Virus record (IMG/VR): IMGVR_UViG_3300045988_042432
DNA length: 64,000 bases
Direction: 5' to 3' (one strand)
Source: a virus
The notes beneath the pieces were generated by a model. The model searched no databases. It was given only the letters and a program-made list of their open reading frames with translations, and was not told the origin of the DNA. This document shows, in pieces, positions 6,391 to 33,248 of this stretch. Made by a program: the position numbers and the translations under genes. The number at the start of each line of letters is the position of its first letter. Positions within the stretch are counted from its first letter, which is position 1.

Positions 6391-6391
6391 T

Positions 6392-6812: not shown

Positions 6813-7525
6813 TTATAGGTATAGTTGGTAAGAAGCAAAGCGGTAAGGATACAGTTTGTAATATCATTCGGTATATAAGTTGGCTTAAATCTTCCAAACT
6901 ATGGGGAGAAGTAACTCTGAATGCTAAACACTTTGAAGCTGTCTGTGAAAGTGAGGATATTGCTCCTATACTTAGTATATGGGAGAAACATCCATGGGCA
7001 GAGAAGCTGAAACAGTGTGCATCCATTATACTAGGATGTCATGTGTCAAGCTTTGAGACAGAGAGTATCAAAGAATCATTTACACATATTCCAATTAGTA
7101 ATAGTGAAGGAGAACCTATGACTCATAGAGAGTTCCTACAAGTACTAGGTACTGAAGTGGGAAGAACTATTGACCCTAACCTATGGGTTAAATCTATGAT
7201 GTCTGACTATGATAAAGGATTTAAGAGTTATCCTACTTATGGTACTGATGAATATGGCAATACTGCGTTTGTACACATGAATACAGTAGAGCCTTGTTGG
7301 ATTATGCCAGATACTAGGTTTCTAAATGAAGTCCAAGCTATCAAAGATAGGAAAGGAATTGTCATTAAGGTAAACAGAGATACCGGATTACTAGATAATC
7401 ATATTTCAGAACATGCTTTGGATGATTATAATGACTATGACTACGTCATTGATAATAACGGAACTCTTGGTGAGTTAATTGTCAAAGTAGCAACTATGAT
7501 GGAGACCTTAGGGGTGCTTCAATAA
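6809..7525 (+). CDS. Deoxynucleoside monophosphate kinase (phage T4 gp1-like)
   Basis: P-loop GKKQSGKDT. The blocks REFLQVLGTEVGR..PNLWVK, IMPDTRF.NE, NHISEHAL and VIDNNGTLGEL are collinear with T4 gp1 (GVKRSGKDT, RRLMQALGTDL..MYWVK, IVPDTRQ.HE, THITEAGL, VITNDGSLEEL). Confidence 0.85.
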   Translation: MIIGIVGKKQSGKDTVCNIIRYISWLKSSKLWGEVTLNAKHFEAVCESEDIAPILSIWEKHPWAEKLKQCASIILGCHVSSFETESIKESFTHIPISNSEGEPMTHREFLQVLGTEVGRTIDPNLWVKSMMSDYDKGFKSYPTYGTDEYGNTAFVHMNTVEPCWIMPDTRFLNEVQAIKDRKGIVIKVNRDTGLLDNHISEHALDDYNDYDYVIDNNGTLGELIVKVATMMETLGVLQ

Positions 7526-7533
7526 ACAATAAT

Positions 7534-7582
7534 GGCCTGTATGGTGGAGTGTAATGCTCTACTGTACAGGCCATTTTTTTTT
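7534..7582 (+). terminator. Intrinsic terminator at the convergence point of the two arms
   Basis: The GGCCTGTA/TACAGGCC core (7534-7541 / 7565-7572) extends to a 16-bp stem. The three non-Watson-Crick positions are G-U pairs only in the + strand RNA. Nine T follow (7574-7582). The 8-bp core plus the T-rich complement of 7525-7533 could also act on the - strand transcript. Confidence 0.8.
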
Positions 7583-7587
7583 GATTA

Positions 7588-10500
7588 TTACTCTGTATCT
7601 TCTTTAACTGTGTCAGCTGCTAATTTAGCTATATTCTTTAGTTCAGTAGTAGCTCCCTTGAAAGTTCTACCGAATCCTGTAGTTCCCATAAAGTATTGAG
7701 ATAGAGTCTTATCTCCAAATGCAAATTCATAGGTATTATTGAACACCGTGCTAAGATATCCAATAGATACAGGTTCCGAATTATTAACTAAGCTCAACAT
7801 AGTGTTGATAGGAGTTACATCGCCAAATGAATTGGTAAATCCTCTCTGGAATAGACTAAACACTGTATCTTCCATAGCCCTAGACATAGTAGGATTTAAT
7901 GGGTCTCTATCTTCCTCTCTGGCTTCAGCCCACAACCTTATTAGATACTGACCTAGAGCTCCTAATAACAACCACAGCATTAAGTCATGTCCTAATCTCT
8001 TTAAATTAGATTTCTTGACACCAGTATCTTCGTTCCATATGTTGTCTCTGACTCCTTTAAGCCCTCCGGATTTAAATTCCCTCCAGGCATCTTTAAGGGT
8101 GTAAAAGATTCCCTCTAGGTATCTGTCAGCCCAAGTTTCTACCGGCACTCCTGTATTCTCTGTAGTTACTATAGTTTTAGTTTCTCCATTATCGTCTACT
8201 ATATCCTTGTACCATAGGAGGTCTCCATTATCATTTTTAGCCTGAACTCTACCTGCCAGTCCATAGTTCTTTGGTTCTAGTAAATAAGCATTCCTGGTTG
8301 CGGACAAGAATGTTTTAAATTGACCAAGCAACGCTCCCATAAAGGTCTTCTCGGCCTGCATTCTTCCGTCATGGTCATAATAACCATAAACTAAATCTGA
8401 TAAAGTTTTAATAGCAAGTACTTCGTCCTGTGTATAAGCAAATGGTAATGCATCACCTTCTTTTAGATTCAGACCTTCAGTTTCATTGAAAGATTTCATC
8501 ATAGATAGATACAGACCTCTTTGCTTATTGTAGTCTGGATTACTCTTATTGCCAGAAGCATAAGCAGCTAACCGCTTGTCTTTCTTCCAATCATACTTTA
8601 ATCCATCCTTAGTCATTTCTATAGCATCCCAAGTCCCATCATGTAGACTTTGAGCTATAAACATGGTCATTCTATTATAGTAATCCGGTGCTGTAGTAAA
8701 CCAATAAGTATACCTGGATAGATTAGACAATCCTGACTTGTTACTTACTAACCTCTGTGACAATTTATTCATATCAAAATCAGCGAGTCTCATTCTAGCA
8801 TTAAGAGCCTCTATCTTAGTGACTCTTGATAAAAAGTCAGGCCCGTCTTTCATGATAATAGCTCCAGCCTGTAGTAATTCCTTATAAGTAAATTTCTCTC
8901 CAGTGTAATACATTTTACTAAAGGCCATTGCAGAGTTCTTCCACATTCCGTCAAATACATCTCTGACTGCACCAGTAACATTAAATGCCAACAGTCCGAA
9001 GGATGCTAATCTCTTAATAGGACCCACAGCTTGATATAGCTGTTTACCTTCCTCACTAATAATGGACTGGTTAAATACTGCAATTTTAAGGTAATTATCC
9101 ATTGTCTCATTAAACACTGTTAAATCAACACCAGTTTCTTTAGCATAGTTAAGAGCTAATAGTTTAATTGCTTTAATTGCCGGGAGCACATCATCAAAGG
9201 CATCTTTGCGTTCTGCGGCGAACACATAGCTAGTTACTAATGATTCCAAATTACGTTCCCAGAAATCAGAATTGTATTGTGCTAGTAATGCCTGTCTAGC
9301 ATCTTCACTAGATTCAGAAATGTTAAACCTATTATACATTTCATATCTAGTAATCATGTCAGACTTAGCTGTGTATTCTTCCTCCGAATATGCATCATTC
9401 TCTTCCCTATTCCAGAAGTCTTTAAACTTCATGGTAACATCTTTAGTTTCTTGGCTAGCCCATTTAGCAATTCCCATTTGCAATATCTTATTATTGGTCT
9501 GTTGCAATGGTACCCAGAACCATTTGTCTTGTTTCTTTAATTGTGCCACTTCTGGGTCAGATTCTGACTTGCCTTCCAGATTAAATCTGTACTTGTTGAT
9601 ATCCCATAATATCTTCTTCAGGAATCTTCTTTCTTCGGATGATAGTGGAGTATTATTATCGTAAGGATTAGCAAACAGCATTTGCTCATTTAGAGACCCG
9701 TCTGGATTTCTTCTAAACATATTATCATATATTTTAGTCTGGTCTCCTATTACTAAATTTCTGGCGTTTGAGTATCCCTTGTCCTTCCATAAGGCTTTAA
9801 CGTAGTCGTTAAAGAATGGATAGTAATATTCTTCAGTCTTCCTAGTAACTCCGTCAAATGCCTTTCTTACTAATTTAACAGCTTGTCTAATATTATTCTC
9901 TGGAATTAGTTCAGGGTTAGTATCCATACCTCCTGATAATGGAGCTCCTTTACGAGTATATCTTCCCATCTTCTCCGGCTGTGTAAATGGAATATCTCTA
10001 TAATAAAGCATCGCTCCTAGAACTGCTTTATAGAATCTTTCTATACCAGTATTAGAGTTCTCTTTCATTATATCCTCCACTGATGCTTTCTCAAGGATAG
10101 TTGGGAATGAAGTATACAACGTTTTGGCTATATCTTCTAACCTGTCGGCTGTAGCAGCTTTATCGTTTGCATTTATGTCAAATAATACCTTACGTACTTT
10201 AGTGTTTAATTCTTGCTGGGTTCTAGGAGTAGCATCTGGTCTACTCATAAGTGCTAAGAACTCTCCTTTTAAAACCTCAAGCTCATCCATAAATGTAACT
10301 TGATTAAGTCTATTAGTCACTCCAGTCTCCTTTGCTAATAAGTTGAACGTCTCTCTTATACTTCTCATATTAGCTATAGTAGCTGTAGATGTATCTGCAT
10401 TTAAGACCTTAAATGTTCCAATCCTAAACACATCTCCAAAGACTTCTGGCATCTCATTAATAGCTGCCATAATCTTCATCAACTCTATATTACCACTAGT

Positions 10501-12159
10501 GGCTCTTAATAGCCAAGGGTTATTCATGGCATATGCGTCTTTCTCATAATCTCCTAACATAGTAGTTCCTAAAGACAGTGGTATGATAGTATTTAAATCA
10601 TGTTTACTAAGTGCCACAAAATCCACCTGCTTAGTAATAACATTATGAATAGCTATAATTCCCAGCTGTTTAAGATTCTCCATATCAACCACTTCCCAAC
10701 CAGGGTCGTTTACATACTTCTGAAATGTGCTCACCACAAAAGCTGTAGTCTTAAACCCTGAAGGTGGTACGATTTGGTCTAAAGGTTTATAACCCTTTAA
10801 AGCCTTGTCCAAATCATATATAAATGCCTGTCTCTTCTCTGCAAAGATTCTATCCCTTTTCTTCAAGTATTCTTCAACCTTTTGTCTAAGTTCCTCATTA
10901 ACAGCTTTATCAGCTGTATCTTTAATATAGATAGGTTTACTATGATTGTAATAATCACTAAAGTACCACCTTCCTTCTGAAGGATGTGGTGAATCATGTA
11001 CTTGAGTTTGAATAAACGAATCTACGTCTATTCTATCCATTCTACTCTGTAATTTAGGATTGGGAATAAACTTTGATAAAGTGTTAAGCACTCCGTCCTT
11101 AATAGGATGTCCTACAGTCTCGTCAGTAATCCTTACAGGTATTATGTTACTAATATTTGAATAATATTCTCCTACTCCCCAAGCTAATCTATTAACAGCT
11201 GAAGATGTGTCTTTCTTCCTGTCTTGTACTGCCTCAAACTGAACGTCTGTTAAAGGACCCTCATCTAGGCCTTCTATTTTCATTGGAATTATATTAAGTT
11301 CCATATTTCTTACTGGGATTCCCTTAGAAGCTAGCATCTGCCTATAGAATCCCAATTGATAGTCATATTTAGATGCTTTAGCCGCATCCCAGTCGTTAGA
11401 AATTTTAGTAGAACTTTTAAATAAATACAAATGAGGTTGTCCTTCTTCATCTACAACTATTAAGTCTATAGAACCTACTAGTTTAAGTCCGTCGTTTGTG
11501 TTAGCATCAACCAGAAATTGAGACATTATTTTAGCACCTTTACCATGAGCTCTATATAGCTCACTTTTAAGTGTTTCTAAATTATCATACAATGATTTAA
11601 TAACAGCTTCGTTGTATTGCATTCCATATTTCTTAGTCAGGGCTTCTAAGTCATAATGCCCTGCAAAGTAGTCTCCAATCATAGAATGTATATCAATACC
11701 AGTTTCAGCTATTCTATCCCACATCTCTAACGTTTGGTCTACTCTAGCATGTGCTTCTTCTCTACTAATCTTCTCCTTATCCATTAATTCAGTAACAGTT
11801 CTGCCTCTCCAATTAGTAACATTAAAGGGCTGAATTAATGCGCCTTCACCGTCACCAGACCTTCCTTTCTCTAAGAAATCTGTAACGGACATATTACCGT
11901 CAGAAGCAGTATAACTTATATCTCCCCCAGTTAAATCTACTCCGTCTTCTCTAAGTCTAGCTTCACTTCTGATACCTCTTAGTTTAGCTACTATTTCAGC
12001 TTGCTTAGTGTCCTGACTAAGTACGATATCAGATATAAGACCATATTCTATCTGATTCTTATGTGCTATCAAGAAGTCAAATAGGTCTGCATAGTTGTTA
12101 TTACCCTCCCCAAATTGTACTACTTGACCATTTATATTTAAACTATATGAACAAGCCAT
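7588..12159 (-). CDS. Giant virion-associated (ejected/cargo-type) protein, ~1523 aa, with an N-terminal PD-(D/E)xK-like module and a C-terminal hydrophobic segment
   Basis: Uninterrupted ORF. The listed start at 12165 is TTG. The ATG at 12157-12159 overlaps the upstream stop (TAATG), so it is the likelier start. The C-terminal segment LMLWLLLGALGQYLIRLW looks transmembrane-like. Confidence 0.75.
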   Translation of the reverse strand: MACSYSLNINGQVVQFGEGNNNYADLFDFLIAHKNQIEYGLISDIVLSQDTKQAEIVAKLRGIRSEARLREDGVDLTGGDISYTASDGNMSVTDFLEKGRSGDGEGALIQPFNVTNWRGRTVTELMDKEKISREEAHARVDQTLEMWDRIAETGIDIHSMIGDYFAGHYDLEALTKKYGMQYNEAVIKSLYDNLETLKSELYRAHGKGAKIMSQFLVDANTNDGLKLVGSIDLIVVDEEGQPHLYLFKSSTKISNDWDAAKASKYDYQLGFYRQMLASKGIPVRNMELNIIPMKIEGLDEGPLTDVQFEAVQDRKKDTSSAVNRLAWGVGEYYSNISNIIPVRITDETVGHPIKDGVLNTLSKFIPNPKLQSRMDRIDVDSFIQTQVHDSPHPSEGRWYFSDYYNHSKPIYIKDTADKAVNEELRQKVEEYLKKRDRIFAEKRQAFIYDLDKALKGYKPLDQIVPPSGFKTTAFVVSTFQKYVNDPGWEVVDMENLKQLGIIAIHNVITKQVDFVALSKHDLNTIIPLSLGTTMLGDYEKDAYAMNNPWLLRATSGNIELMKIMAAINEMPEVFGDVFRIGTFKVLNADTSTATIANMRSIRETFNLLAKETGVTNRLNQVTFMDELEVLKGEFLALMSRPDATPRTQQELNTKVRKVLFDINANDKAATADRLEDIAKTLYTSFPTILEKASVEDIMKENSNTGIERFYKAVLGAMLYYRDIPFTQPEKMGRYTRKGAPLSGGMDTNPELIPENNIRQAVKLVRKAFDGVTRKTEEYYYPFFNDYVKALWKDKGYSNARNLVIGDQTKIYDNMFRRNPDGSLNEQMLFANPYDNNTPLSSEERRFLKKILWDINKYRFNLEGKSESDPEVAQLKKQDKWFWVPLQQTNNKILQMGIAKWASQETKDVTMKFKDFWNREENDAYSEEEYTAKSDMITRYEMYNRFNISESSEDARQALLAQYNSDFWERNLESLVTSYVFAAERKDAFDDVLPAIKAIKLLALNYAKETGVDLTVFNETMDNYLKIAVFNQSIISEEGKQLYQAVGPIKRLASFGLLAFNVTGAVRDVFDGMWKNSAMAFSKMYYTGEKFTYKELLQAGAIIMKDGPDFLSRVTKIEALNARMRLADFDMNKLSQRLVSNKSGLSNLSRYTYWFTTAPDYYNRMTMFIAQSLHDGTWDAIEMTKDGLKYDWKKDKRLAAYASGNKSNPDYNKQRGLYLSMMKSFNETEGLNLKEGDALPFAYTQDEVLAIKTLSDLVYGYYDHDGRMQAEKTFMGALLGQFKTFLSATRNAYLLEPKNYGLAGRVQAKNDNGDLLWYKDIVDDNGETKTIVTTENTGVPVETWADRYLEGIFYTLKDAWREFKSGGLKGVRDNIWNEDTGVKKSNLKRLGHDLMLWLLLGALGQYLIRLWAEAREEDRDPLNPTMSRAMEDTVFSLFQRGFTNSFGDVTPINTMLSLVNNSEPVSIGYLSTVFNNTYEFAFGDKTLSQYFMGTTGFGRTFKGATTELKNIAKLAADTVKEDTE
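11326..11718 (-). other. PD-(D/E)xK / RecB-Cas4-like nuclease-fold region (possibly degenerate)
   Basis: GIDIHS ... GSIDLIVVDEEG (Asp codon 11464-11466) ... LYLFKSS (Lys codon 11416-11418) ... YQLGFY (11344-11358) follows the order h-D / (D/E)xK / QxxxY. The acidic residue of the (D/E)xK triad is Leu. Confidence 0.4.
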
Positions 12160-14573
12160 TAGCAATTCTCCTTTAAGTTACCACTCTTTATTAATTTCTG
12201 AATTAAATTAGTTATAGTACGGGATTCAGAAGCTAAGTTCATATCAAAACCTGCTGCTAAATCGTTGTTAATAAGTGCACTACCAAATTCAGACATAATA
12301 TTATCTATAGACATATTAAGAAGTCTTCCTAACTTCTCATTCTTAATATCATCACTAGTTTGGAATGTCTTTTGAGTCTTCTCTTTAAATATTCTCCCCA
12401 TTTCCTCTAGTGAAGCTTCTTTACCTTCAAACCAAGGCTCTGCGATTCTAGCGAAGTAATTACCAAACTCTGTAACAAATATCTCCTCATTCAAGTCAGG
12501 AACAGCTCTAGTATCTCCTATCATCCTAAATGCTTCTAGTTTATCATCATAGTTCGCCAGAGACTCCACCTGTTCAACTAGCCCATAGTAAAGACCTGGA
12601 TTAGTCCTCTTCATAGAACCCATAATTAAATGTGCAAACTCATGCAGTGAATCAGCTGTAGTAGCTCTGTCTACATTTAGATAGACTTCTCCATTATAAA
12701 TAAATGCATTAGTTCTTCCAGCATTAGGAATCACTCCTCTGAATTTAGAAGCTATCTCTCTAGCAGTAACTACGTTAACATTAATGCCATAGTTCTTACT
12801 AAGGTGATTGGCTATCTCTACCATTTCACTTTTAAATGACCTGGGTACTTTCTTGTGAACTGGTACACTTCTTTCTGATTCTAGCTTTCTGAATGAGTAT
12901 TTGTCCCCATTTGCCCCAGTTACTTCATATACAGATTCGGTAGCATTCTGAATTGTATTTAAAGCTTCTGTCATTAATTGCAGCTCATAGTCTAGTTTGT
13001 CTTGAGTTAGCATACTAGGTACTTTACTGTTATATAGAGAAGCATGAATGTCTGGGTCTCTTAATTGATTCTTTAATAAGAAGAAAGTCTCCAATTTCTC
13101 TTGAGTGTTAAGTATAGATTCTATATTAAGTCCCTGCTCTTTAAGTATGCCAATTAGTTTCTTATATTGGGGCTTCTTATTAAGCTCTGATATGAAGTTG
13201 TTAAAAGTAATACTCTTAACTAAATCCTTATCATTGTATAGCTTTATGTTATCATTTAGTTCTATATCCAAAACGGAGAATCTGTCTCCAATTTGTAAAG
13301 ATTGATGACTTTGTATTGCTAAACTTCCATTTTTGAGTTTACTAGTAACCGATTTCAAATCTATAGGTCTGTCTAATAGTTTATTGGCAATACTTCTAGC
13401 ATATTTGAGATTATCTACTCCTGCTCCTTTCAGCCCGTCTGAAGTTGTAACAATCCTACTGTCTATATAATATCTGTCATTATATTTAGCGATGTTATAA
13501 CCCCCTACAGTTTCAATAGGCTCTATTAACTCTCCAGAGTATTCTGTGTTAACTATAGTCTTGTCAAACTCCGGCTGCTTAAACGTATTTCTTAATAATA
13601 TTCCCCCATCACTTATAAATGCAATGTCTAAGAACTTCTCATTGTCAATTTTATTATTCAAGTCTTGTATAGTAGATACTATAGATTCATCAGACAGTTC
13701 TCCGTAGCTATAAGCATCCATAAAGTCTTGCATATCTTTCTTAGATATACGTAAGTAGTTCCCAGATACTTCTGCTCTATCTACTAGTGCTTGAACTGTA
13801 ATATCTGAATAAGAAGGAATTTCAGTAGTAGGAGTACCTATTATTTGATTAAACAGCTCATTAAATTTACTAACAAGCCCATTCTTATATAATGCATCAT
13901 TGAAAGTAGCACTAGTATAGAAGTAATTCACAAAAGCAGGTATAACATTACCATGAATACTATTGGTGTTAAAGTTATACCCTATATATTTCATGATAGT
14001 CTGCACTCTAGATGAAGTATCATTACTTGCAGCTAGCATTTTTAACGCAGACTCTATATTCTTGTTTACTTCCTGAACTTGTTCTTTAGGAGCCTTATCT
14101 AATACTGTATTCACATATCTTTGCTTTAGATAGGTCTCTATATATTCTTCTTTAGGCTTAATAACTGCCAAACTGCCACTAGTGTCTCTAAATATACCAT
14201 AATTGGTATTCCAAGCAAGGCTAAATCTAGCATTAGTGAGTAGTATATTATTCCTATTTAAGTCCTCACCTTCCCCTTGCAACTTGTCTACTAAGTAGGT
14301 AATATTTGGAGTTGGGAACTCATTTTTAATTGTATTTAAATTATAATTACCAATTGGTAATCCGTCCTTGCCAAGATTCTTGGAATCCAAAGCTGTAATA
14401 GGAAATCCTCCTGAATTTACTGCATTAATAAAATCATTATAACTCTCTACATTTCCCATTAATGCTCCTATTGCATCTTCTAAAGACATTTCACTAACGT
14501 CAGGAACCTCTAGCTTAAATAAGCTAGGGGCTCCCTCGTTAGAATGTACTAAAAATTCTACTGTACAACTCAT
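12159..14573 (-). CDS. Virion-associated protein with a zincin (HExxH) metallopeptidase motif, 804 aa
   Basis: HEFAH lies at residues 644-648 (12630-12644) in the context SLHEFAHLIMG, with downstream Glu candidates (GLVEQVE). It sits between two giant virion ORFs with coupled stops and starts. Confidence 0.6.
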   Translation of the reverse strand: MSCTVEFLVHSNEGAPSLFKLEVPDVSEMSLEDAIGALMGNVESYNDFINAVNSGGFPITALDSKNLGKDGLPIGNYNLNTIKNEFPTPNITYLVDKLQGEGEDLNRNNILLTNARFSLAWNTNYGIFRDTSGSLAVIKPKEEYIETYLKQRYVNTVLDKAPKEQVQEVNKNIESALKMLAASNDTSSRVQTIMKYIGYNFNTNSIHGNVIPAFVNYFYTSATFNDALYKNGLVSKFNELFNQIIGTPTTEIPSYSDITVQALVDRAEVSGNYLRISKKDMQDFMDAYSYGELSDESIVSTIQDLNNKIDNEKFLDIAFISDGGILLRNTFKQPEFDKTIVNTEYSGELIEPIETVGGYNIAKYNDRYYIDSRIVTTSDGLKGAGVDNLKYARSIANKLLDRPIDLKSVTSKLKNGSLAIQSHQSLQIGDRFSVLDIELNDNIKLYNDKDLVKSITFNNFISELNKKPQYKKLIGILKEQGLNIESILNTQEKLETFFLLKNQLRDPDIHASLYNSKVPSMLTQDKLDYELQLMTEALNTIQNATESVYEVTGANGDKYSFRKLESERSVPVHKKVPRSFKSEMVEIANHLSKNYGINVNVVTAREIASKFRGVIPNAGRTNAFIYNGEVYLNVDRATTADSLHEFAHLIMGSMKRTNPGLYYGLVEQVESLANYDDKLEAFRMIGDTRAVPDLNEEIFVTEFGNYFARIAEPWFEGKEASLEEMGRIFKEKTQKTFQTSDDIKNEKLGRLLNMSIDNIMSEFGSALINNDLAAGFDMNLASESRTITNLIQKLIKSGNLKENC
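12630..12644 (-). other. HExxH zinc-binding motif (HEFAH)
   Basis: Read directly from the reverse complement (catgagtttgcacat). Confidence 0.7.
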
Positions 14574-14574
14574 G

Positions 14575-24339: not shown

Positions 24340-24344
24340 TATTC

Positions 24345-27300
24345 TTATATATTTAATTTACAGTTCTGACTATCAATTATTTGCTTATTATTAGCAAGAC
24401 TGTTAATATATTCCATAACATCTAATATGTCAGGGTCGTCAAGTTGCTCATCAGTCAAGTAACCTTCGAAGTGATTGTCCACTAATCTTATCTTATCAAG
24501 AAGTGCATCAGCAGCTTCCGGAGTAAGAGAGGTAGTAGCTCTCAATTCTTGGATAACAGTCATGATTTCGGTCTCCCTAAGATTCTCATGGTCTCCAATG
24601 GTATCTTCGAATATCTTGAGTTTCTGTTCTCTATTAGGGTCAAATGGAACTTCATACATCACTGTATCAACTATATTAACTTCACTTCCAATAATGCTTC
24701 CTTTAATTGTTTGTCCACCTTGCAAATATACTGTAAAATCTTGTAAATTACCACTACTATAATCAACATTTTGAATACCCGTAGTATCAATCTCTCCGTC
24801 TTTAGTTTTGGGTAGTACAGACGGACTCTTAACATTTATTTCCTGTAATAGAGTATGTACCTTATTAATGACTGGCATGTTGTTAACATCAACAGTCATA
24901 TCTAGATGAATTACAGGGTCGTTATTAATTAATAGCTGTCTGTTATTTATGTCATTAGTAAGACTAGTATTTACCTTAGTTGCTACTCCTTTTAATATTT
25001 CATCTAATGCAATATCACCTTTCTCTAGATATTCATTGCGTGCATCATTAAGGATTTGGTCTATTGAGGTATAGCCAGTGAAAGCACTGGATACTCCATT
25101 AGCAATTAACGTAATGTTATTATCAAACTCTGACTGTCTGTTATGTGGAACTCCTTTATTAAATTGTCTCTCTGATAATACAGTAGGGTCAATGGTTATT
25201 TCAAAGTTAGGACTTTCTATAGCAGTATCAATATAGAATTGATTGTCATTATTTCTAGTTGGATAGAAATCAGAAGGTCTACTATCATGTGAAGTCGGAG
25301 TTCTAGGAGTATAATATATTCCATTTATAAATGGAGCATATGTAGTAGTTGCAGCTCCTTCTTTAATAGTTGGAGTACCATGGAATATCACATTAAACAT
25401 GTTATTTAGTACAGAGAAGTAGTTATCTCTACCTGCATCTCTAACTGCCCTAACTATATTAAATGATAACTCCTCTAACCTAGTTTCCTTCATTTTACCG
25501 TCTCTAGCCTTAGCTCGGAATACATAACTTTCATCTGATTTCTTACCAGCGGAGAATAGTTTGTAAACTGATGATAATAATCCAACCATTTTGAATGAAC
25601 CACCCATTCCACCTATATTAGATGCTGCATGTTTATAAGTATTCTTACCGTCAGTCAATTCTATGGCTCCGTCGTCAGCTATTAACTGTGCTAAGATATT
25701 GTCCATATCTCTGCCGTTAGTAGCTATGGTGAAGTTCGGATTACCTGGTAATGAAATATACTCTTCTAATATACTAAATAGATTATCCAATATAGATAGT
25801 TGAGCTTGAGCTACTTTAGGGTCTATGTAAACACCGTATGTAAGAGTTCTAGGAACTTTACCGTTAGAGTCAAATGTTTGCCATTCATTTCTACTTAAAT
25901 TTATAGGTCTTACTACCATACCAGGAGCATTAGTCTTGATAGCATCTGCGTATGTAAGTCTAAACATAAATCCATTATAAATAGAAGAATCCCAAGGAAC
26001 TCTCTTCTGTCCATCCACAGTAGATTGGTCGATTAGTCTATTAAACTCATTAACTTCAGAAGTACCTCTAACATCATCAAGGTTATTAGCCTGTCTGTAA
26101 GTGTCATAAGCCTTAATGAAGTTCTTTAATCCAGACCTGTAATTCCACATACTTACTAGCATTCTAGCAGCAGTAGTATTACTTCCAAATGTTCCTAAAT
26201 ATTCCTTTACTTGATTCTTGTCTAATTTAGTTTTACCGTCATCAGCAGTATGAACTAAATCATTAAAAGACAGTCTAAAGTAATTATCAATAAAGGTTCC
26301 ATTGGAATTAGCTACTATCATTCTTATAAGTGGTGGTACCGTCTTAGCTACTTCAGCTTGAGCATCCTTATCACTAAGACCTCTAGATTTAGCTTCATCT
26401 AGCGCGGCTTTACGCTTCTTCTGCATTCTTAGATACATCTCTGCAAGATTAGATTCAGTTACTTTCTCTCCGTCAATTTTAAGATGTTTGTTAGAAGTGG
26501 CAAATACTACACCTTTACCTCTTACAGACTTATCTACCATAGCTACTCCACCATGTCCTGCATAAAGATACATCGGACTAATAATGGCATTAGGAAATGC
26601 TTCTCTAACCTTATCCAAGTTCCAAGTTTGGTCTGGAACTTTCTTAAGTCTAGTCGCAGCAGAGAATGATATATCACTTTCATCAATTCCAAGATATTTA
26701 ACAGTACTAGGATTATCTAAGATTTCCTTCTGCATATTCTTATACCACTTCTTGTACTTATTAATTCTAGCAGCAATATCAGCATCTTTGCCGTTACTAT
26801 TGTTCCATTTCTGCCAAGTGTCAGGATTGGTTAATTTACCTATAGTGAATTGTAAATCATTACCTTTCTCCATAGGTATTCTATATACTATATTGAACGC
26901 AACAGGTTCTACTTTAGTAGAGTCATAACCCTGTTTGTCTCTAGCTTTATCAGTGCCTTCTTCGTTAGTATCATCTTTCCTGATTTCTAGATTGAACGTA
27001 CCATTATTCCAAACTTCTGCACCCAATCCAGCTAAGTATTTATAACCATTGTCGCTTAGTTTCTGAATGAAGTCAGCATCAAACTTCTCGCCAAATGTCA
27101 AGTAGTTTCTAACGTCTACTAACATATCCTTGGCAGGTTGTAATGTATTAGTATCATACTCTACATTACTTCTAGTGAAGACATTCAAATCATCAACTAC
27201 ATCATTCCTTACCACTCTAGTAAATTTACCATCGGAAGTTTCTGCCATACCATATCTCATATACCAGCCGTATGCTCTAATTCCAGAAAGAGGTTCACTT

Positions 27301-30300
27301 AGTAATAATTCATCTATAACAGATTCTTCTCCTTTACCCTCTATATCTGCTAAGAACTCATTTTCAAGCTCATTAGTGCCAGTCATAGTTCTACTAGGTG
27401 GTATAAATGTAGGAGCTTGCACTTCCTTAGATTTCTCTTTAGTTGTAGGAGTAGGCTCTGGTATATCAGTAGATTTTACTGGCTCCGGAGCTTCTTCTGG
27501 ATTAACTGGAGCAGGTTCAGGTATAGGTGGCTCCTGTGCTTTCCTAGAAGGAGTATATCCCTCTAATTCGGCATTAAATGCAGCCATTCTAATTACCTTG
27601 AATCTATCTATCACAGCAGAAGGGTCAGAAGTAGTAGATGTATATTCATCTTGACGTAAATTAGCTTCTTTGATAATAGTTCCCATGTTGCTATTAATAA
27701 AATAAGCTCCGTCCTTAGAACGAGACATCATAGTATAAAATGACTTCATATAATCAATAAGTCCAGAGACTGTATTTGTATTATACTTACTGAAGTTTAC
27801 ATCAATTATAGCATGTTTAAACTCAGAACCTTGAACTGATTTAGGAGTACGCATAATAATCCTACTATCTGCCATATTGGTTAGCATTTTGTAAGTAGGA
27901 GTATTCTCATCATCATACACATATCCGACTTCTCCGTCCCTTTCTAGTATTTGTCTAACGTCGTCTTCGGTAATAGCAGTGACAAATTTACTTCCATTAA
28001 GGATATTGTCTCCGTCTTGATAATAATGTAACTCCATCATGTTACTTATTGTATCTTTGACATTATTAACAGCATTAGCTTGACTCTCTGAATCAGCCAT
28101 TTGTTCTGGAGTAAATGTCAACACACTCAAAGCCGCATTTACCGTAGTATTATTATCATTCTGTTGAGTATTAGTAATACGTAAGCTAATATCCAGCTTA
28201 GGAGTTCTGACCATTAAAGATTCAGATGACTTAACATTATAGACACTGATGGTAGGATTCTCATATCCATTCTGATTTAAGTCTCCTAGTGGAACAATAG
28301 TTACATTGTTCTTATGTGCCCAATTAGACAAATGTTGCATATAAAGGCTATTTACCCAGGTAGCCTCATCAATAAATACAAGCCTCGGAGTTTGAACATC
28401 GTTATACTCTATATCTTCATTGATAATGGCAGCTCTATAAGATTCCATTACTGTTCCACCAGGCGATGTAATGGGGCCAAGTTCTTCTATTGTGAACTGC
28501 TTAGACTCCTTATTATTATGTAATATATCATTAGACAGCTCTGCATAATTAGATTCTCCCAATACATGACTCATTAAATCCTCTATAGTAAACGCTTTGC
28601 CTTCACTTCCTAAAGAAGACACTAGATTATCTACTTGCTGTTTAGTTGGACCTACTTTCCATATCTCTGCATCAGGATAGTACTTCTTAACAATGTTCTG
28701 AATTAACTTAGCAATAACAGCTGTTTTACCAGCACCACCAATACCGTCTACCATTACAGTATTCCAGTATCGTATTAACTCACTACCATAAGTTCCTTTA
28801 GGAGTATCTATATTATTAACAGCAGCATTCATTATATCCGGATTAACTGCCATAGCTGTAGCCAAATATGCAGCATATTCTTGTGAATATAAAGGGGCAT
28901 AATTAGCATCTGTCTCAACAAGGGATTCTCTTAAGTAATAATCAAAATCTGACTTCTTAAAAGCTATCATTGCATGTAATAGCATATAAACATCATAATC
29001 CTCTAAAGATTTAGTCTCCGGGCTAAATTTGGTGTTTCTTTGCTCTACCAAATTATTAATGTTGAATTGATTTCTTACATCAGAGAATAGGTCCTTCAAT
29101 ATAACTTGTGGAGAATCTCCAGTAGTTTGCACTATCTCCTGGAAGTTGTCATATAGCTTGTTCTGTAATGAACTAAGTTCCTTAGAGATAAGCGGATTGT
29201 CATAGCTAACATTGTCAATATCATCAAGAGTAGGGGTTGGCATAGTATCTATATCTTTAAATAGCTGCATGCCTTTATACTTAAGTTCTTTTAGGAACTG
29301 GTATCTATCCTTACCCTTTAATATATTAGCTGTCAATTTAGATATTTGTTGACCTGTTCTACCATGTTTGCTAAATTGATTAACAGCATTCATTCTAGAC
29401 AATTCTTTCAAGAATGTAAGTTGCCTAGTTATTAATGCCAACTCCTCTTTCATGATTGCAGCTATATCACCTCTAATGATTCCATACTTCTCTTCTTTTG
29501 GGAAGTAGGTTTCTAGGAAGTAATTCATAGTAGCATTGTGCCCAAATGGATTATTGATGTCTAAATCAGTAGTAGAACTGGCATCAATAACAGCACTAAG
29601 CATGTCTATGATTTTGAATGCTTGGTCTATTTCCTTCTCCTTATTACCGTCCAATACGTAGTCAGATACAGAAGGGGCGTTCTCTAGTCTTCTATTCTCA
29701 TCTCTTAGTAAGTCAAAGATAGTGAGTTTGCTTCCATATACAGTATTAGTAAGTTGGTCAAGGAAATCATATACTGGACTAGTTTTGATTTGTAAAACAT
29801 CCTTCCTTAATTGAGCTATAGTAGCATTAGTAGGATTAGACATTACAAGACTTTCCATATCCTTAGCTGCTTGTACAAATGTCTTCTCGAAATTATTTAT
29901 TCTCTCTTCGACTTTCTCCATTACTACAGGAGCGTCTTCCGAAGGGTACACGTCCCCATTGTTGTCCATGAAGTCTAAAGTGTCATAAACAAGTCTCTTT
30001 CTATGTACATCAGAATGAAGAATATTATGAATATTGTCTATAACAGTATCCAAATTATTACCGTCTATGTCTTTTAATGTTTCTAATAAGGCATCATATA
30101 TAGGATGTGGTATTCTGTTCCCGTCTATATCTAAAACTGGTACATCATTTGCAATAGCTTTTAATACTACATCAAATGCTGCTTCATTAGAGATTTTGTC
30201 TCCAAGTACACTTAATAGAATCTCCTTGGTATCAGCATCCATAAATCCAAACTGCATAGCTTGTTGTATTACAGCTTGCACTCTTCCGATTACTTCTAGA

Positions 30301-33248
30301 TTCTGAACTTCAATAGCTTGACGTCTTAGGTCTGCGTCAACTTCAGACTCACCTTCAATAGGAGAGAATCTTTCTCTTACGAACTTCTTGTTTAGTACTG
30401 GTCTAATATTCTTGTCTCTTCCTAATTTAGAAATAAGTACCTGTTCAGCATCAGCACCTTCTGGCACATCTAACTTGTCAACAGTGGCTCTTAAATCGAT
30501 TAGATTATTATATGCCCATGCTTTGAACTTATAATAATCATCGTAAGTTACTGTGCCTTCTTCAAGTTTAGTAGAGAAATCTTTATTAAGCTTCTTAAAT
30601 ATACCATAGGCTGTATCAAGAGCTTGCATCTTGTCTTGCTGTTTATAAGATGCATAATCAGACTCGTAACCTTTAACTTGTTCAGGAGCCATATCTTGGA
30701 ATCTTTGTCCTGATTTAAACTCAACAAAATCCCTAAATGTTGGTGCATAGAAGAATGCATTTACACTATTATCAATAGCGAACAGCATTTGACCAGTATA
30801 GTATTCAGAGAATGTTCCGTCTAGGAATTTCTGTTTCTTCAAATCAAGGTCAGCCTTCTCTTGTCTTAGCCTTTGTAAGTCGTCAGCATAAGTAGTACTC
30901 TTCTTACTTTCTGTTCCAGTGTCTTGTGTATTAGACTCTAATGCGGCTATCTTTCTACGAACTTCTACAATGTCAGAAACTAAACTATTAAAATCTTGAA
31001 GCATTTTGCCATTATATCCATTCTCTATAGCTCTACCGAACTTCTGCCCGTCTGATACTTCAAAGCTAGCTAGAGCTTTCATCCTAATGTCCCCCATTAC
31101 CATTTTGTCAAGGAGCTGTTCATCAGAGAAGTTTAATCCCTCTTGATTAATAACAGCGTCAAGATGCTGTAGGTAATTCTTAGTCATGGTATAGACTGCT
31201 TCGTTTTGATTGTCACTAGGAGTAGTAGGAGAGGTCCATATAGTACCTTGGTCTGTATCTTCTGTCTTAGTAGCAGACAGATTCTTATTGCCAAGCTTGC
31301 CCTTTTTCCGCATGTCATTTAATTCTTCCATTAACTCGCTAGTTCTGCCATTTCTAATAAGGTAGATAAGTTCTTGGTTAGTTTGTTCATTAGTGGCCTT
31401 CCTATTCTGTGCAATATCTACACCATAGAAGATAGCACCACCAAGAGCTCCTCCGAAGAAGTTCATACCATATCTTTCAGCTGCATTCTCCCAAGCATCA
31501 AGTTTCTGTTTACTCTTAGTGTAACCCATTTCTTGAGCCCAGTTAAATGTAGCTTTCGATAGGTCAACTACTAATTCTTCAGACATTTCTTCCAGACCTT
31601 CACCTATGGCCTTACCTACGAATCCTGTAGTATGATTTCTAATGTCAGACCAATAATTAGAAGAGTATTGTTTAGCAGTATTAAACATTTTAGCCAGCTT
31701 GTTAGGCTTAGGCATGTTACTAGTAGCAAGTTGACCCAATCCCTTATTAATTTCTCCAGTTACTTGTGAGATAGCCTTTCTGTAAGTGAGAGCGTCTCCT
31801 TTAAGCTCTGGGAAGAATAATTCACCAAGTCCAGTTCTATCAACTGCATACATGCCAGCTACTGCTCCCCATGCTATAGCTGCTGCTTCTGCTCTATCAG
31901 CTCCTTGCTCTATAGCATCTTCAAAAGTCTCAAGACCTTGCATCATAGCCATATAACCTAGAGCTGTATTAGCTGCCATTCTGTTATTTCTTTTAAGAAT
32001 AGTCTCAAACGCTTTTGTACCTTTAAGCCTATTCATCTCATACAAGCTGCCTATGGCTCCTTTATATTTATCAGGATTAGAAGCCAGTAATCTAGTTGAT
32101 TCCAAATCAGCAGCTTGCATTGCAGCTTTGTACTTCTTATCTGTACCTAGTAATGCATTCATGCCTTTGAAGATAGTTCTTTGCTGTCCCCACTGTAATG
32201 CCACATCGGTTACTAAATCAAAGAAATTCTCTGCTGACATCAATTTACCTTGAGAGTATTCTGATTTAGAGCCTTTAAATGTTCTACCTATACCTTGTAT
32301 TAGATTAGCTGTAGGCGTATCTTCGTTCAGTCCTAGAGTAGATTTATAAATAGTGGGTAGTATATCCATTAACTGAGCACCAATCATAGCTCCTCCATAT
32401 ACCAAATTCACATAAGGTACAAATAAAGGTGCTAGTGAAGTCACTGTCTTCATAACAGTACCAGTAACAGACTTATCAAGTCCGTCAGAATCAAAGAAGT
32501 CATATTTATTAGCAGCAGAACCGTCTACTGTGAAACTGTCAAACATAGATTTAAACTTACGACCATAAGCTTCTCTTCCGGCTAGTGTCTCATAGTAGTA
32601 GGTTCCTTCGTCATTGTATTTAAGGTCACCTTTACTATGCTTAACTATTCTGCCAGAGTATGGGTCTTTATGCTCTCCGTCTGAATCCCATTGGGCAAGT
32701 ACTAAAGGTTCTGAAAGTGATTTCAAGAAACCTAATGGGCTGCCAAATAGAACATTATCATTAGGAGTATAGTCTTCGTACTTACCAGTTTCGTAGTTAA
32801 ATACCTTCTGTGTTTGTGCTAGTTCTGATGCTGTCCATTCTCTATTATCTGTGCGTCCTATTTGTGACACACCAGTCTTCAATCTATCAGGATTAAGTAC
32901 CCTTCTAACATTAAAATTAATAGGTTTATCCTCTGCATCATTAGGTTTTAATTGAGAATATGGGTCCCAATCAACGTCCTCCATGATTGTATCCTCGAAT
33001 TGGTCATTGGCAAACTTTTGATAAGTAAATGCAGCACTATCATACTTTTGGTTAAATGCTACTTCATTAAACTTACCATTCTCATCCTTAAACATTTCTT
33101 GGACAAACTTACTATTCCTGTAAGTATTCTTATCTAGTAATCCAGTATTATCAGCTGTTAATCCTACATCTCTAAAATTGTCCATAGTAAATGAAGGATT
33201 CTCTAATTGAGCTACAAACCAATCATTAGGTTTCTTTATATCATTCAT
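24345..33248 (-). CDS. Giant polyvalent virion protein, 2967 aa, with an embedded SF1 (RecD/Dda-like) helicase core and a Pro-rich linker
   Basis: Uninterrupted 8.9-kb ORF. All SF1 motifs appear in order (see the helicase feature at 27700-28830). The N-terminal ~1450 aa and the C-terminal ~1050 aa are unrecognised. Confidence 0.7.
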   Translation of the reverse strand: MNDIKKPNDWFVAQLENPSFTMDNFRDVGLTADNTGLLDKNTYRNSKFVQEMFKDENGKFNEVAFNQKYDSAAFTYQKFANDQFEDTIMEDVDWDPYSQLKPNDAEDKPINFNVRRVLNPDRLKTGVSQIGRTDNREWTASELAQTQKVFNYETGKYEDYTPNDNVLFGSPLGFLKSLSEPLVLAQWDSDGEHKDPYSGRIVKHSKGDLKYNDEGTYYYETLAGREAYGRKFKSMFDSFTVDGSAANKYDFFDSDGLDKSVTGTVMKTVTSLAPLFVPYVNLVYGGAMIGAQLMDILPTIYKSTLGLNEDTPTANLIQGIGRTFKGSKSEYSQGKLMSAENFFDLVTDVALQWGQQRTIFKGMNALLGTDKKYKAAMQAADLESTRLLASNPDKYKGAIGSLYEMNRLKGTKAFETILKRNNRMAANTALGYMAMMQGLETFEDAIEQGADRAEAAAIAWGAVAGMYAVDRTGLGELFFPELKGDALTYRKAISQVTGEINKGLGQLATSNMPKPNKLAKMFNTAKQYSSNYWSDIRNHTTGFVGKAIGEGLEEMSEELVVDLSKATFNWAQEMGYTKSKQKLDAWENAAERYGMNFFGGALGGAIFYGVDIAQNRKATNEQTNQELIYLIRNGRTSELMEELNDMRKKGKLGNKNLSATKTEDTDQGTIWTSPTTPSDNQNEAVYTMTKNYLQHLDAVINQEGLNFSDEQLLDKMVMGDIRMKALASFEVSDGQKFGRAIENGYNGKMLQDFNSLVSDIVEVRRKIAALESNTQDTGTESKKSTTYADDLQRLRQEKADLDLKKQKFLDGTFSEYYTGQMLFAIDNSVNAFFYAPTFRDFVEFKSGQRFQDMAPEQVKGYESDYASYKQQDKMQALDTAYGIFKKLNKDFSTKLEEGTVTYDDYYKFKAWAYNNLIDLRATVDKLDVPEGADAEQVLISKLGRDKNIRPVLNKKFVRERFSPIEGESEVDADLRRQAIEVQNLEVIGRVQAVIQQAMQFGFMDADTKEILLSVLGDKISNEAAFDVVLKAIANDVPVLDIDGNRIPHPIYDALLETLKDIDGNNLDTVIDNIHNILHSDVHRKRLVYDTLDFMDNNGDVYPSEDAPVVMEKVEERINNFEKTFVQAAKDMESLVMSNPTNATIAQLRKDVLQIKTSPVYDFLDQLTNTVYGSKLTIFDLLRDENRRLENAPSVSDYVLDGNKEKEIDQAFKIIDMLSAVIDASSTTDLDINNPFGHNATMNYFLETYFPKEEKYGIIRGDIAAIMKEELALITRQLTFLKELSRMNAVNQFSKHGRTGQQISKLTANILKGKDRYQFLKELKYKGMQLFKDIDTMPTPTLDDIDNVSYDNPLISKELSSLQNKLYDNFQEIVQTTGDSPQVILKDLFSDVRNQFNINNLVEQRNTKFSPETKSLEDYDVYMLLHAMIAFKKSDFDYYLRESLVETDANYAPLYSQEYAAYLATAMAVNPDIMNAAVNNIDTPKGTYGSELIRYWNTVMVDGIGGAGKTAVIAKLIQNIVKKYYPDAEIWKVGPTKQQVDNLVSSLGSEGKAFTIEDLMSHVLGESNYAELSNDILHNNKESKQFTIEELGPITSPGGTVMESYRAAIINEDIEYNDVQTPRLVFIDEATWVNSLYMQHLSNWAHKNNVTIVPLGDLNQNGYENPTISVYNVKSSESLMVRTPKLDISLRITNTQQNDNNTTVNAALSVLTFTPEQMADSESQANAVNNVKDTISNMMELHYYQDGDNILNGSKFVTAITEDDVRQILERDGEVGYVYDDENTPTYKMLTNMADSRIIMRTPKSVQGSEFKHAIIDVNFSKYNTNTVSGLIDYMKSFYTMMSRSKDGAYFINSNMGTIIKEANLRQDEYTSTTSDPSAVIDRFKVIRMAAFNAELEGYTPSRKAQEPPIPEPAPVNPEEAPEPVKSTDIPEPTPTTKEKSKEVQAPTFIPPSRTMTGTNELENEFLADIEGKGEESVIDELLLSEPLSGIRAYGWYMRYGMAETSDGKFTRVVRNDVVDDLNVFTRSNVEYDTNTLQPAKDMLVDVRNYLTFGEKFDADFIQKLSDNGYKYLAGLGAEVWNNGTFNLEIRKDDTNEEGTDKARDKQGYDSTKVEPVAFNIVYRIPMEKGNDLQFTIGKLTNPDTWQKWNNSNGKDADIAARINKYKKWYKNMQKEILDNPSTVKYLGIDESDISFSAATRLKKVPDQTWNLDKVREAFPNAIISPMYLYAGHGGVAMVDKSVRGKGVVFATSNKHLKIDGEKVTESNLAEMYLRMQKKRKAALDEAKSRGLSDKDAQAEVAKTVPPLIRMIVANSNGTFIDNYFRLSFNDLVHTADDGKTKLDKNQVKEYLGTFGSNTTAARMLVSMWNYRSGLKNFIKAYDTYRQANNLDDVRGTSEVNEFNRLIDQSTVDGQKRVPWDSSIYNGFMFRLTYADAIKTNAPGMVVRPINLSRNEWQTFDSNGKVPRTLTYGVYIDPKVAQAQLSILDNLFSILEEYISLPGNPNFTIATNGRDMDNILAQLIADDGAIELTDGKNTYKHAASNIGGMGGSFKMVGLLSSVYKLFSAGKKSDESYVFRAKARDGKMKETRLEELSFNIVRAVRDAGRDNYFSVLNNMFNVIFHGTPTIKEGAATTTYAPFINGIYYTPRTPTSHDSRPSDFYPTRNNDNQFYIDTAIESPNFEITIDPTVLSERQFNKGVPHNRQSEFDNNITLIANGVSSAFTGYTSIDQILNDARNEYLEKGDIALDEILKGVATKVNTSLTNDINNRQLLINNDPVIHLDMTVDVNNMPVINKVHTLLQEINVKSPSVLPKTKDGEIDTTGIQNVDYSSGNLQDFTVYLQGGQTIKGSIIGSEVNIVDTVMYEVPFDPNREQKLKIFEDTIGDHENLRETEIMTVIQELRATTSLTPEAADALLDKIRLVDNHFEGYLTDEQLDDPDILDVMEYINSLANNKQIIDSQNCKLNI
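27395..27545 (-). other. Pro/Glu-rich low-complexity linker
   Basis: QEPPIPEPAPVNPEEAPEPVKSTDIPEPTPTTKEKSKEVQAPTFIPP lies immediately after the helicase core. It looks like a junction between two fused modules. Confidence 0.7.
27700..28830 (-). other. SF1 helicase core (motifs I-VI)
   Basis: Motifs seen: I GIGGAGKT (28722-28745, residues 1502-1509); Ia VGPTKQQVDNL; II LVFIDEATWV; III VPLGDLNQ; V TPKSVQGSEF; VI FYTMMSRSK. Confidence 0.75.

Follow-up and report, generated by a model that had tools for sequence, protein, structure and literature searches.

Giant open reading frames around a two-barrel RNA polymerase orthologue in a crAss-like phage, and the cysteines at their facing termini

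A 64,000-nucleotide (nt) stretch of viral DNA, IMG/VR virus record IMGVR_UViG_3300045988_042432 (hereafter the window), was analysed for a block of four giant open reading frames (ORFs) on its minus strand, named A to D in the order in which they are read, whose products are candidates for delivery with the phage genome. A preliminary description made from the letters alone had placed these ORFs head to tail between 7588 and 33248, with tightly coupled stops and starts, and had read in them an SF1 (superfamily 1) helicase core, a DYDID motif, HEFAH and a PD-(D/E)xK-like module. All four ORFs are found at those positions in the ORF table and all the motifs are present (Table 1). Together A to D measure 25.66 kb, or 40% of the window. 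Only 5 nt lie between the stop of A and the start of B and 1 nt between those of B and C, and C and D overlap in TAATG, given that D starts at the ATG at 12159. This ATG is likely the true start of D, since the N-terminus that it gives, MACSYS, fits all the homologues. At the composition of the block strand a stop would be expected every ~13 codons, so that a stretch of 804 codons would stay open by chance with a probability of ~1e-27 and one of 3254 codons with ~1e-110. The description of a four-ORF block holds for A to D as such but not for the start of the run, which lies upstream of A: two further ORFs, E and F, precede it and are coupled equally tightly. No strong transmembrane segment was found in A to F by a hydrophobicity scan.

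Table 1. Features of the giant-ORF block and its end, with positions in the window (aa, amino acids; Cys, cysteine).
Feature	Position	Strand	Details
ORF A	24345-33248	-	2967 aa
SF1 (RecD/Upf1-like) helicase core, A aa 1497-1850	27699-28760	-	Pfam and motifs
A Cys2963	24360-24362		only Cys of A
ORF B	14575-24339	-	3254 aa
B Cys3	24331-24333
B aa 1497-1712, end of first barrel and connector	19204-19851	-	shared IKVGA, GLGIQMDADH, IPFSDP, INKxAIKRKxPG
B insertion, ~500 aa, aa ~1719-2215	17695-19185	-	gap from connector to catalytic barrel; no gp66 counterpart
B catalytic barrel, aa 2216-2638	16426-17694	-	ARIPAQTMQSFM...QGSDYDIDK; aligned to gp66 1313-1656
DYDID, B aa 2263-2267	17539-17553	-	motif
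B Cys3254	14578-14580
ORF C	12159-14573	-	804 aa
C Cys3	14565-14567		C has only Cys3 and Cys804
Zincin-like domain, C aa ~580-804	12162-12836	-	HExxH and Glu, AlphaFold2 model
HEFAH, C aa 644-648	12630-12644	-	motif
C Cys804	12162-12164
ORF D, from TTG	7588-12165	-	1525 aa
ORF D, from ATG at 12159	7588-12159	-	1523 aa
D Cys3	12151-12153		only Cys of D
PD-(D/E)xK (RecB/Cas4-type) domain, D aa ~130-280	11320-11772	-	PHROG and Pfam matches of homologues, motifs
D aa 1013-1409	7933-9123	-	matches phi14:2 gp65 (GenBank gp076) aa 941-1310
ORF E	33250-35082	-	610 aa; 0 Cys
ORF F	35073-39737	-	1554 aa; 0 Cys
Hairpin, 20 paired positions	7531-7575		between convergent ends of D and a plus-strand dNMP (deoxynucleoside monophosphate) kinase gene; terminator scan and sequence reading

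The window is 99.3% identical to MT835470.1, a 117-kb phage from human faeces that bears no annotation. In the annotated phage collection this near-identical genome and one distant relative, also without annotation, were the only relatives, and no mention of MT835470 was found in the literature. Genes in the neighbourhood of the block match the Pfam families Crass_capsid (56601-58022; E 4.2e-14, 52.2 bits with a cutoff of 27) and crAss_MUZ, the muzzle protein (42877-47682; E 2.5e-32, 112.5 bits). On account of these two matches the phage is classed as a member of the Crassvirales, as the preliminary description had it. The structural module of the window closes with a run of giant multidomain proteins, one bearing the DxDxD polymerase motif, and a giant 'transcription gene block' with a DxDxD polymerase is a signature of crAss-like phages (PMC7886860). 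Within this order the phage probably belongs to the Zeta group (proposed Echekviridae), as its gene order is that of phage Lera, homologues of B are split inside DxDxD and relatives found by BLAST are few. It may be noted that the polymerase of Zeta phages is split inside this motif (PMC7886860). The phage seems to be common, because 3,900-6,900 member sequences fall in the 90% clusters to which A, B and D belong.

For B we found 23 homologues, all of them giant and none annotated. The stretches most conserved among them are KRNVIIPATL...DGSA...DKKPI (aa ~1223-1304) and ARIPAQTMQSFM...QGSDYDIDK (aa 2224-2268), with R2225, P2227, Q2229, S2233, G2261, S2262 and D2263 invariant. The B-family profile was aligned with hhalign to gp66, the two-barrel virion RNA polymerase of Cellulophaga phage phi14:2. 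Against gp66 alone, B 2217-2641 matched gp66 1314-1659 (probability 93.2%, E 2.9e-7), and the DYDID of B fell on the DFDID of gp66 (1361-1365). Against a 56-sequence profile of the gp66 family the match of the catalytic barrel (Table 1) rose to a probability of 98.8% (E 5e-17), and this alignment covers the bridge helix and the trigger loop as given in the gp66 preprint (SALLSAATDNAKELIL). A second, colinear segment was obtained by local alignment with the same family profile (B 1497-1712 on gp66 1050-1248; probability 94.5%, E 8e-8); the connector of gp66 is placed at 1095-1238 (bioRxiv 10.1101/2020.03.07.982082). The N-terminal half of the first barrel of B could not be aligned to the gp66 family by hhalign. 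The insertion that lies between the two matched segments has a pLDDT (predicted local distance difference test) mostly above 70 and commonly ~80 in the AlphaFold2 model (model residues ~570-1070). Position 4 of DxDxD is Ile in crAss-like polymerases, under an Ile-or-Val rule (bioRxiv 10.1101/2020.03.07.982082), and the DYDID of B fits this rule. Neither a direct sequence search nor a 13-sequence profile of B found anything relevant among PDB chains, and no Pfam or PDB sequence match to T7-like single-subunit polymerases was obtained. The two colinear profile matches identify B as an orthologue of gp66 and bear out a giant polymerase of the virion type, as proposed earlier. The accompanying comparison with phage N4 is retained as a functional parallel, but by its profile matches B is a two-barrel and not a T7-like enzyme.

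The polymerase is broken in several of the relatives. In the B homologues P0005-P0008 the first polymerase ORF ends exactly at ...QGSDY, inside DxDxD. In the distantly related locus L164 (10001-20095) the first polymerase ORF, P0009, has another end point, and behind it come a LAGLIDADG gene and more fragments. These split relatives match the split Zeta polymerases of the literature, and the form in the window is uninterrupted. Between the barrel motifs (the equivalent of B ~1150-2216) P0015 has a segment with HEYAHH, which is HExxH-like, and P0010 a P-loop segment, GHPALGKTT; to judge from these sequences, other lineages carry additional modules between the motifs.

More than 829 homologues of A were found, nearly all of 2.8-3.2k aa and most with PF13604 or PF13245. 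At aa 1497-1662 A matches the Pfam families AAA_30 (31.9 bits, cutoff 27), AAA_19 (29.1, cutoff 25.1) and Viral_helicase1 (22.3, cutoff 21), and a UvrD_C_2 match stays below its cutoff. The helicase motifs read GIGGAGKT, DEAT, GDLNQ, VQGSE and MSRSK. Their key residues (Walker A G1502/G1505/G1507/K1508, Walker B D1627/E1628, motif III G1655/D1656/Q1659, motif V Q1806/G1807/E1809 and motif VI T1839/R1843) are at least 93% conserved in an alignment of 30 family members, in which the N-terminal ~700 aa are the best-conserved part of the protein. Profile comparison with the PDB gave weak matches to Upf1/NAM7, SMUBP-2 and RecD over the P-loop region, and a direct search against PDB chains gave nothing relevant. 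The SF1 helicase core of the preliminary description is thus conserved in the family and is predicted to be intact and active-looking. A stands upstream of the polymerase, in the position of phi14:2 gp67. A comparison of the block with other Crassvirales, which had been proposed earlier, was made on 232 large ORFs from 80 gp66-type loci of other crAss-like phages: the helicase profile found no match and the nuclease and zincin profiles found one each. Because of these counts the helicase, nuclease-like and zincin modules are taken to be specific to the lineage of the window, within which they are usual.

C is made up of an N-terminal part that varies between lineages and a C-terminal zincin-like domain. 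For the domain 461 homologues were found at E<=1e-3. It is C-terminal in 130 of 131 aligned homologues, in proteins of ~350, ~800 or 1000-1700 aa. Across these 131 sequences H644, E645, H648 and E697 never vary, and E696 is kept in 97% and the terminal C804 in 98%; the candidate for the third ligand of zinc is E696/E697. The AlphaFold2 model of the domain (mean pLDDT 71.2; residues ~41-170 mostly 76-95) has a core of three short strands, an HExxH helix (100-118) and an EE helix (152-172). Among the Foldseek matches of the model in BFVD, which range from E 1.5e-6 to 2e-2, are a CrAss-like virus protein and proteins annotated as structural in Tenacibaculum phage Gundel_1 and in a Flavobacterium phage; the matches to 'structural' proteins of other crAss-like phages lie at E 3e-3 to 2e-2. 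No Pfam or PDB sequence match was obtained for the domain, profile search included. The phi14:2 protein gp65 carries a zincin-like protease domain (bioRxiv 10.1101/2020.03.07.982082); polymerase activation or peptidoglycan digestion has been proposed in the literature for the zincin-like domain. Of the proteolysis module proposed earlier, the HExxH and the downstream Glu, as in metallopeptidases of the gluzincin type, stand as invariant in the 131 homologues, and the zincin fold is a candidate one.

D has 9 homologues. Its family profile aligns with that of gp65 (Table 1) at a probability of 95.8% (E 6.7e-9, 342 aligned columns), and BLASTP of A, C and D against the phi14:2 neighbours found nothing. 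From this profile alignment, and the short one of the HExxH core of C given below, C and D are assigned as the split, colinear counterpart of phi14:2 gp65. In the N-terminal part of D, PHROG 1706 at E 0.002 is the sole profile match of the window protein, which has no Pfam match. The homologue P0147, 63% identical to it, matches Pfam PDDEXK_1 (24.3 bits, cutoff 22) at aa 131-276, as 5 of the 9 family members do. The residues of RecB type in D are H158, D163, GSID232, LFK248 and Q268xxxY272, of which H158, D232, K248 and Q268xxxY272 are invariant in the family, and the motif II Asp (GSID232) and the motif IV QxxxY are present. A search of PDB sequences with the D profile returned nothing. The RecB-like fold of D is supported by the family matches and the motif residues.

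Some further observations were made on relatives of C and D. In the D homologues P0149 and P0150 aa 823-954 (window D ~820-955) give a near-threshold match to Anthrax-tox_M, the middle domain of anthrax lethal factor (best E 3e-5, 24 bits with a cutoff of 25), and a phage 'Lethal factor' is weakly similar to the model of the C domain (BFVD E 0.08). A remote relation of the C and D domains to such toxins is possible. One distant homologue of the zincin domain also has Pfam ART-PolyVal, the ADP-ribosyltransferase of polyvalent proteins (E 3e-5), which hints that this domain family is combined with effector modules elsewhere. In the distant relative L165 (19630-26106) the counterpart of C is a bare zincin domain of 358 aa, and a dNMP kinase gene follows the counterpart of D on the same strand.

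Whether the giants travel with the genome was judged from their relatives, their position and their composition. In phi14:2 gp66 transcribes the early genes, early transcription is resistant to rifampicin, and gp65, gp66 and gp67 are all reported to be in the virion (bioRxiv 10.1101/2020.03.07.982082); the GenBank notes give gp076-078 of this phage as structural by tandem mass spectrometry (MS/MS). For phage crAss001 mass spectrometry (MS) of virions revealed gp47, gp49 and gp50, and a cargo zone of the capsid was described (PMC10172136). A to F hold 8 Cys in 10,712 aa (0.075%). In the window's remaining ORFs Cys makes up 1.47%, so that the block is depleted 20-fold (binomial P 8.5e-57), and the ORFs on the replication side have ~2-5%. 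A conserved suppression of Cys has been described for the proteins encoded by the ejection operon of N4-like phages (PMC11445570). Behind the muzzle gene, the ORFs of 450 aa and 188 aa contain no Cys. Eight consecutive ORFs after the muzzle gene (7588-42884 except 40134-40916) have 0-0.25% Cys, and this low-Cys run likely marks the full cargo set, the 450-aa and 188-aa ORFs included. E and F, for which Pfam and PHROG gave no match, are probably further cargo proteins. Packaging is inferred because B and the C-terminus of D are orthologous to phi14:2 virion proteins, because the genes directly follow the muzzle and cargo genes, and because Cys is depleted as in the N4-like ejection operon. Delivery of A to D with the genome, as claimed in the preliminary description, is plausible by orthology, gene order and Cys depletion. 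That the combination is unusually rich was overstated, as an equivalent order is annotated in Lera and the helicase protein has the many homologues given above.

The cysteines that remain lie mostly at the protein ends (Table 1). In the families of the window proteins a terminal Cys is present in 87-100% of the sequences, where chance would give 1-2.5%. The phi14:2 proteins show the same placement, with Cys at 1797 in gp67 (1797 aa), at 3 and 2179 in gp66 (2180 aa) and at 3 in gp65 (1421 aa), as do those of crAss001, with Cys at 2339 in gp47 (2341 aa), at 5, 1334 and 2404 in gp50 (2412 aa) and at 5 in gp49 (1349 aa). A pattern-based search of IMG/VR for relatives of gp65 and gp67 returned only phi14:2, and gp66 loci with 7-kb flanks were used instead; the large ORFs of these 80 IMG/VR loci were put into classes by homology alone. 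An N-terminal Cys was found in none of 31 gp67-like proteins, in 45 of 50 polymerases and in 54 of 56 gp65-like proteins, and a C-terminal Cys in 34 of 35, 52 of 56 and none of 47, respectively. Fusions of the polymerase with the gp65-like protein have the N-terminal Cys (2 of 2) but not the C-terminal one (0 of 6), with no internal Cys in the six; those of the gp67-like protein with the polymerase have the C-terminal Cys (6 of 6) but not the N-terminal one (0 of 3). ORFs of ~5,000 aa that run past the end of the locus have no Cys at all, and the two B-C fusions P0020 and P0021 have none in the stretch joining B to the C-like part. When the gp65 counterpart comes as two proteins, as with C and D of the window, a new pair of Cys is found at the split. 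The distance to the terminus varies between phages, the single Cys being within 1-9 residues of the end. The giants of crAss-like phages therefore keep Cys almost only at those termini that face the neighbouring protein, and it is absent from fused junctions.

We considered two other origins of this pattern. The terminal Cys could be a by-product of the overlap of starts and stops; this was rejected, as the distances vary and gp47 of crAss001 keeps its Cys though it lies on the opposite strand, so that the pattern is not produced at the nucleotide level by gene junctions. Inteins or split inteins at the junctions were also rejected, because no intein-like sequence is present and the residues misfit the splice-junction pattern. 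No mention of the terminal Cys of giant cargo proteins was found in the literature consulted, and the rule is apparently new and general across the Crassvirales as far as these families reach. Virions of crAss001 contain disulfides, with many in the tail proteins. The loss of both Cys on fusion suggests that the pair does the job that a peptide bond does in the fused lineages, and a Cys so near to the end would leave almost no side branch during threading.

Among known systems the closest in layout is that of phi14:2, where gp67-gp66-gp65 (GenBank gp078-gp077-gp076) are, like the block, a set of 3-4 giant co-directional genes after the muzzle and cargo genes. The likeness extends to the homology of gp66 and B over the DxDxD barrel, the bridge-helix and trigger-loop region and the connector, to the homology of the C-terminal parts of gp65 and D, to an HExxH domain downstream of the polymerase and to the terminal Cys. 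The two differ in that B is 1074 aa longer than gp66, with the ~500-aa insertion before the catalytic barrel, in that the gp65 counterpart of the window consists of two proteins, C and D, with the RecB-like domain as a gain, and in that A contains an SF1 helicase and is not detectably similar to gp67. The gene order of Lera (PV725988; Zeta, proposed Echekviridae; PMC12386605), compared by its published gene table, is the same as that of the window: the muzzle gene is followed by genes for proteins of ~500 aa and ~190 aa, two mid-size genes, a 'RecD-like protein' (8346 nt), the polymerase, a ~2.9-kb gene and 'exonuclease V' (4614 nt) (PMC12386605). However, the polymerase of Lera is in pieces of 6321 and 2631 nt around a homing endonuclease gene and TGA is recoded, whereas the reading frame of B runs through without a break and uses the standard code. 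The distant relatives L164 and L165, found via the B homologues, keep the gene order of the block, and counterparts of E and F of similar size are present at the equivalent position in these two and in Lera. In crAss001 the gp45-gp50 region resembles the block in having polymerase-associated giants in the virion (by MS), the capsid cargo zone and the terminal-Cys rule, but gp47 is on the strand opposite to gp50-gp49 and no helicase is annotated in the GenBank record. The N4-like phages (Schitoviridae) are similar in packaging a giant polymerase, which on ejection serves early transcription, and in the strong suppression of Cys in the proteins that they eject. The polymerase of N4 is of the T7-like single-subunit type, unlike the two-barrel B, and N4-type proteins are wholly without Cys while the crAss type keeps the terminal ones. 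A model for cooperation of A and B is offered by QDE-1 of Neurospora with QDE-3, the likeness here being by description: QDE-1, a relative of gp66, is a single-chain polymerase with two barrels that prefers single-stranded DNA (ssDNA) and depends on a helicase and on RPA (replication protein A). It differs in being a eukaryotic enzyme of RNA silencing, and QDE-3 is a RecQ-type helicase and not of SF1.

Taking these lines together, we consider it very probable that the block is the Zeta-lineage version of the 'transcription gene block' of the Crassvirales, a set of giant proteins that are carried in the virion and ejected. The helicase and nuclease-like modules are typical of this lineage and are already named in the published annotation of Lera. 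The genes from F to D would form one long operon expressed late, and the proteins would be packed in the cargo zone of the capsid near the portal and then be threaded through the tail partly unfolded, ahead of or with the DNA. After ejection B would transcribe the early genes. As gp66 transcribes ssDNA efficiently but double-stranded DNA (dsDNA) poorly, and as its eukaryotic relative QDE-1 needs a helicase (bioRxiv 10.1101/2020.03.07.982082), we propose that the helicase of A may open the incoming dsDNA for B, to which we give clearly less than an even chance. The zincin of C may process or activate its partners, as suggested for gp65, and the degenerate RecB-like domain of D may hold DNA ends. 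The terminal Cys that face each other (A end and B start, B end and C start, C end and D start) would link the four proteins. The chain would fix the order of ejection, and reduction in the cytoplasm would release the proteins. Since the Cys pairs stand at facing termini, are lost on fusion and are gained on the split of gp65, we tentatively suggest, as something only a little short of an even chance, that the giant cargo proteins of the Crassvirales are joined head to tail by disulfides. Here this would give a four-link A-B-C-D thread of ~8,550 residues that passes the tail in order and comes apart in the reducing cytoplasm, the Zeta thread also bringing the SF1 helicase that would open DNA for an ssDNA-preferring polymerase.

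A number of observations weigh against this interpretation. The AlphaFold2 model of B 1150-2300, made from 9 sequences, has a mean pLDDT of 59.7 and is mostly below 50 across both barrel motif regions, and Foldseek found no PDB match for this model, which is poor at the barrel motifs. Therefore the assignment of the polymerase rests on sequence profiles and gene order and not on fold. Between A and gp67 BLASTP found no similarity and the best probability between the two families was 3%, which makes their orthology positional only. The cooperation of helicase and polymerase is pure inference. For the C domain the Foldseek search of the PDB was not significant (anthrax lethal factor at rank 4, E 1.6), and the alignment of its HExxH core with that of gp65 by hhalign (probability 54%, E 1.3e-4) spans 25 columns only. 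In D the motif III (D/E)xK is replaced by L246-F-K248 in the window and by L/A/V/T-F-K in close relatives, though the distant homologue in L165 keeps D-Y-K. Since the motif III acid has become Leu246, cleavage of DNA by D in this phage is doubtful; the RecB-like domain is more likely to bind DNA than to act as a nuclease, which weakens the possible DNA cleavage of the preliminary description. B has internal Cys at 1278 and 2488. The Cys pattern reveals selection on the termini and not chemistry, so that a shared metal site, another virion partner or a packaging signal is possible, and the place where disulfides would form is a difficulty, as both the host gut and the cytoplasm are reducing. 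Finally, no virion proteomics of the window phage or of any Zeta-group phage was found in the literature consulted.

It could also be that the block is an intracellular DNA-processing module that is not packaged, in which a RecD-like helicase and a RecB-like nuclease act as an analogue of RecBCD or degrade host DNA. The RecD/Upf1-like A, the PDDEXK_1 fold in D and the names 'RecD-like protein' and 'exonuclease V' in Lera would suit such a role, and no demonstration of packaging in the Zeta group was found in the literature consulted. Yet A to D lie in the late, structural run after the muzzle and cargo genes and around an orthologue of a virion polymerase, and the C-terminus of D is homologous to a phi14:2 protein that is structural by MS/MS. 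Their 20-fold depletion of Cys is at odds with the ~2-5% of the replication-side ORFs. The loss of the motif III acid in D speaks against the module as well, and so do the proportions of the proteins, the helicase taking ~350 aa of 2967 and the nuclease ~150 aa of 1523. We hold this alternative to be very improbable. Somewhat less improbable, but still quite unlikely, is that A to D are polyvalent proteins delivered mainly against host defence, with transcription as one of several jobs. They are multidomain and probably delivered, and ~80% of the block residues are without an assigned function. The ART-PolyVal match in one homologue of the C domain and the Anthrax-tox_M matches of P0149 and P0150 just below the cutoff, with 4 of 9 D family members matching at E<=5, would fit as well, and so would weak BFVD matches of the C model to 'large polyvalent protein-associated domain' proteins and the phage 'Lethal factor' (E 0.06-1.5). 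But the link to polyvalent proteins drawn in the preliminary description is not upheld by Pfam, which found none of their signature domains (large polyvalent protein-associated, MuF, ArdC-N, ART-PolyVal and similar) in A to D. Also, the core of the block is orthologous to gp65-gp66 and parallel in position to gp67, a set whose role is early transcription.

For the terminal Cys a function other than disulfides between the giants has to be weighed, namely metal binding, an anchor to the portal, muzzle or capsid, or the remnant of a processing or recognition site. The evidence consists of sequence patterns alone, with a single Cys per terminus at 1-9 residues from the end, and the many disulfides of the crAss001 tail proteins imply that other partners exist. 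On the other hand, the counts fit pairwise junctions exactly, with one Cys in the first and last proteins and two in the middle ones, and the division of gp65 into C and D comes with an additional pair. Both Cys are absent in the fusions, a loss that anchoring to a third partner would not predict. We regard these other functions as rather unlikely when taken together, and prefer the disulfide chain at the tentative level given above.

At its downstream end the block is followed by the hairpin of Table 1, with which the transcription unit likely ends. In the window D and the gene for the dNMP kinase (6809-7525, plus strand) converge. On the other side an HNH/homing-endonuclease ORF (40134-40916, minus strand; PHROG 559, E 2.8e-46) with 12 Cys lies between the small cargo genes and F, and hairpins are present at 39754-39791 on its F side. 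Rfam gave no match anywhere in the window, and hence no recognised intron surrounds the HNH gene.

A block of this kind is expected for crAss-like phages and the overall picture is unchanged. The window supplies an uninterrupted Zeta-type polymerase in the standard code, where many relatives are broken by homing endonucleases or recoding. As the phage also seems to be common, it would serve well as a template in expression and structural studies. The apparently intact helicase adjoining a polymerase whose characterised orthologue is poor on dsDNA in vitro would give a concrete answer to how early transcription starts. The Cys rule bears on a question posed by the structure of crAss001, that is, how a cargo of about a megadalton may be ordered and pass through the tail.

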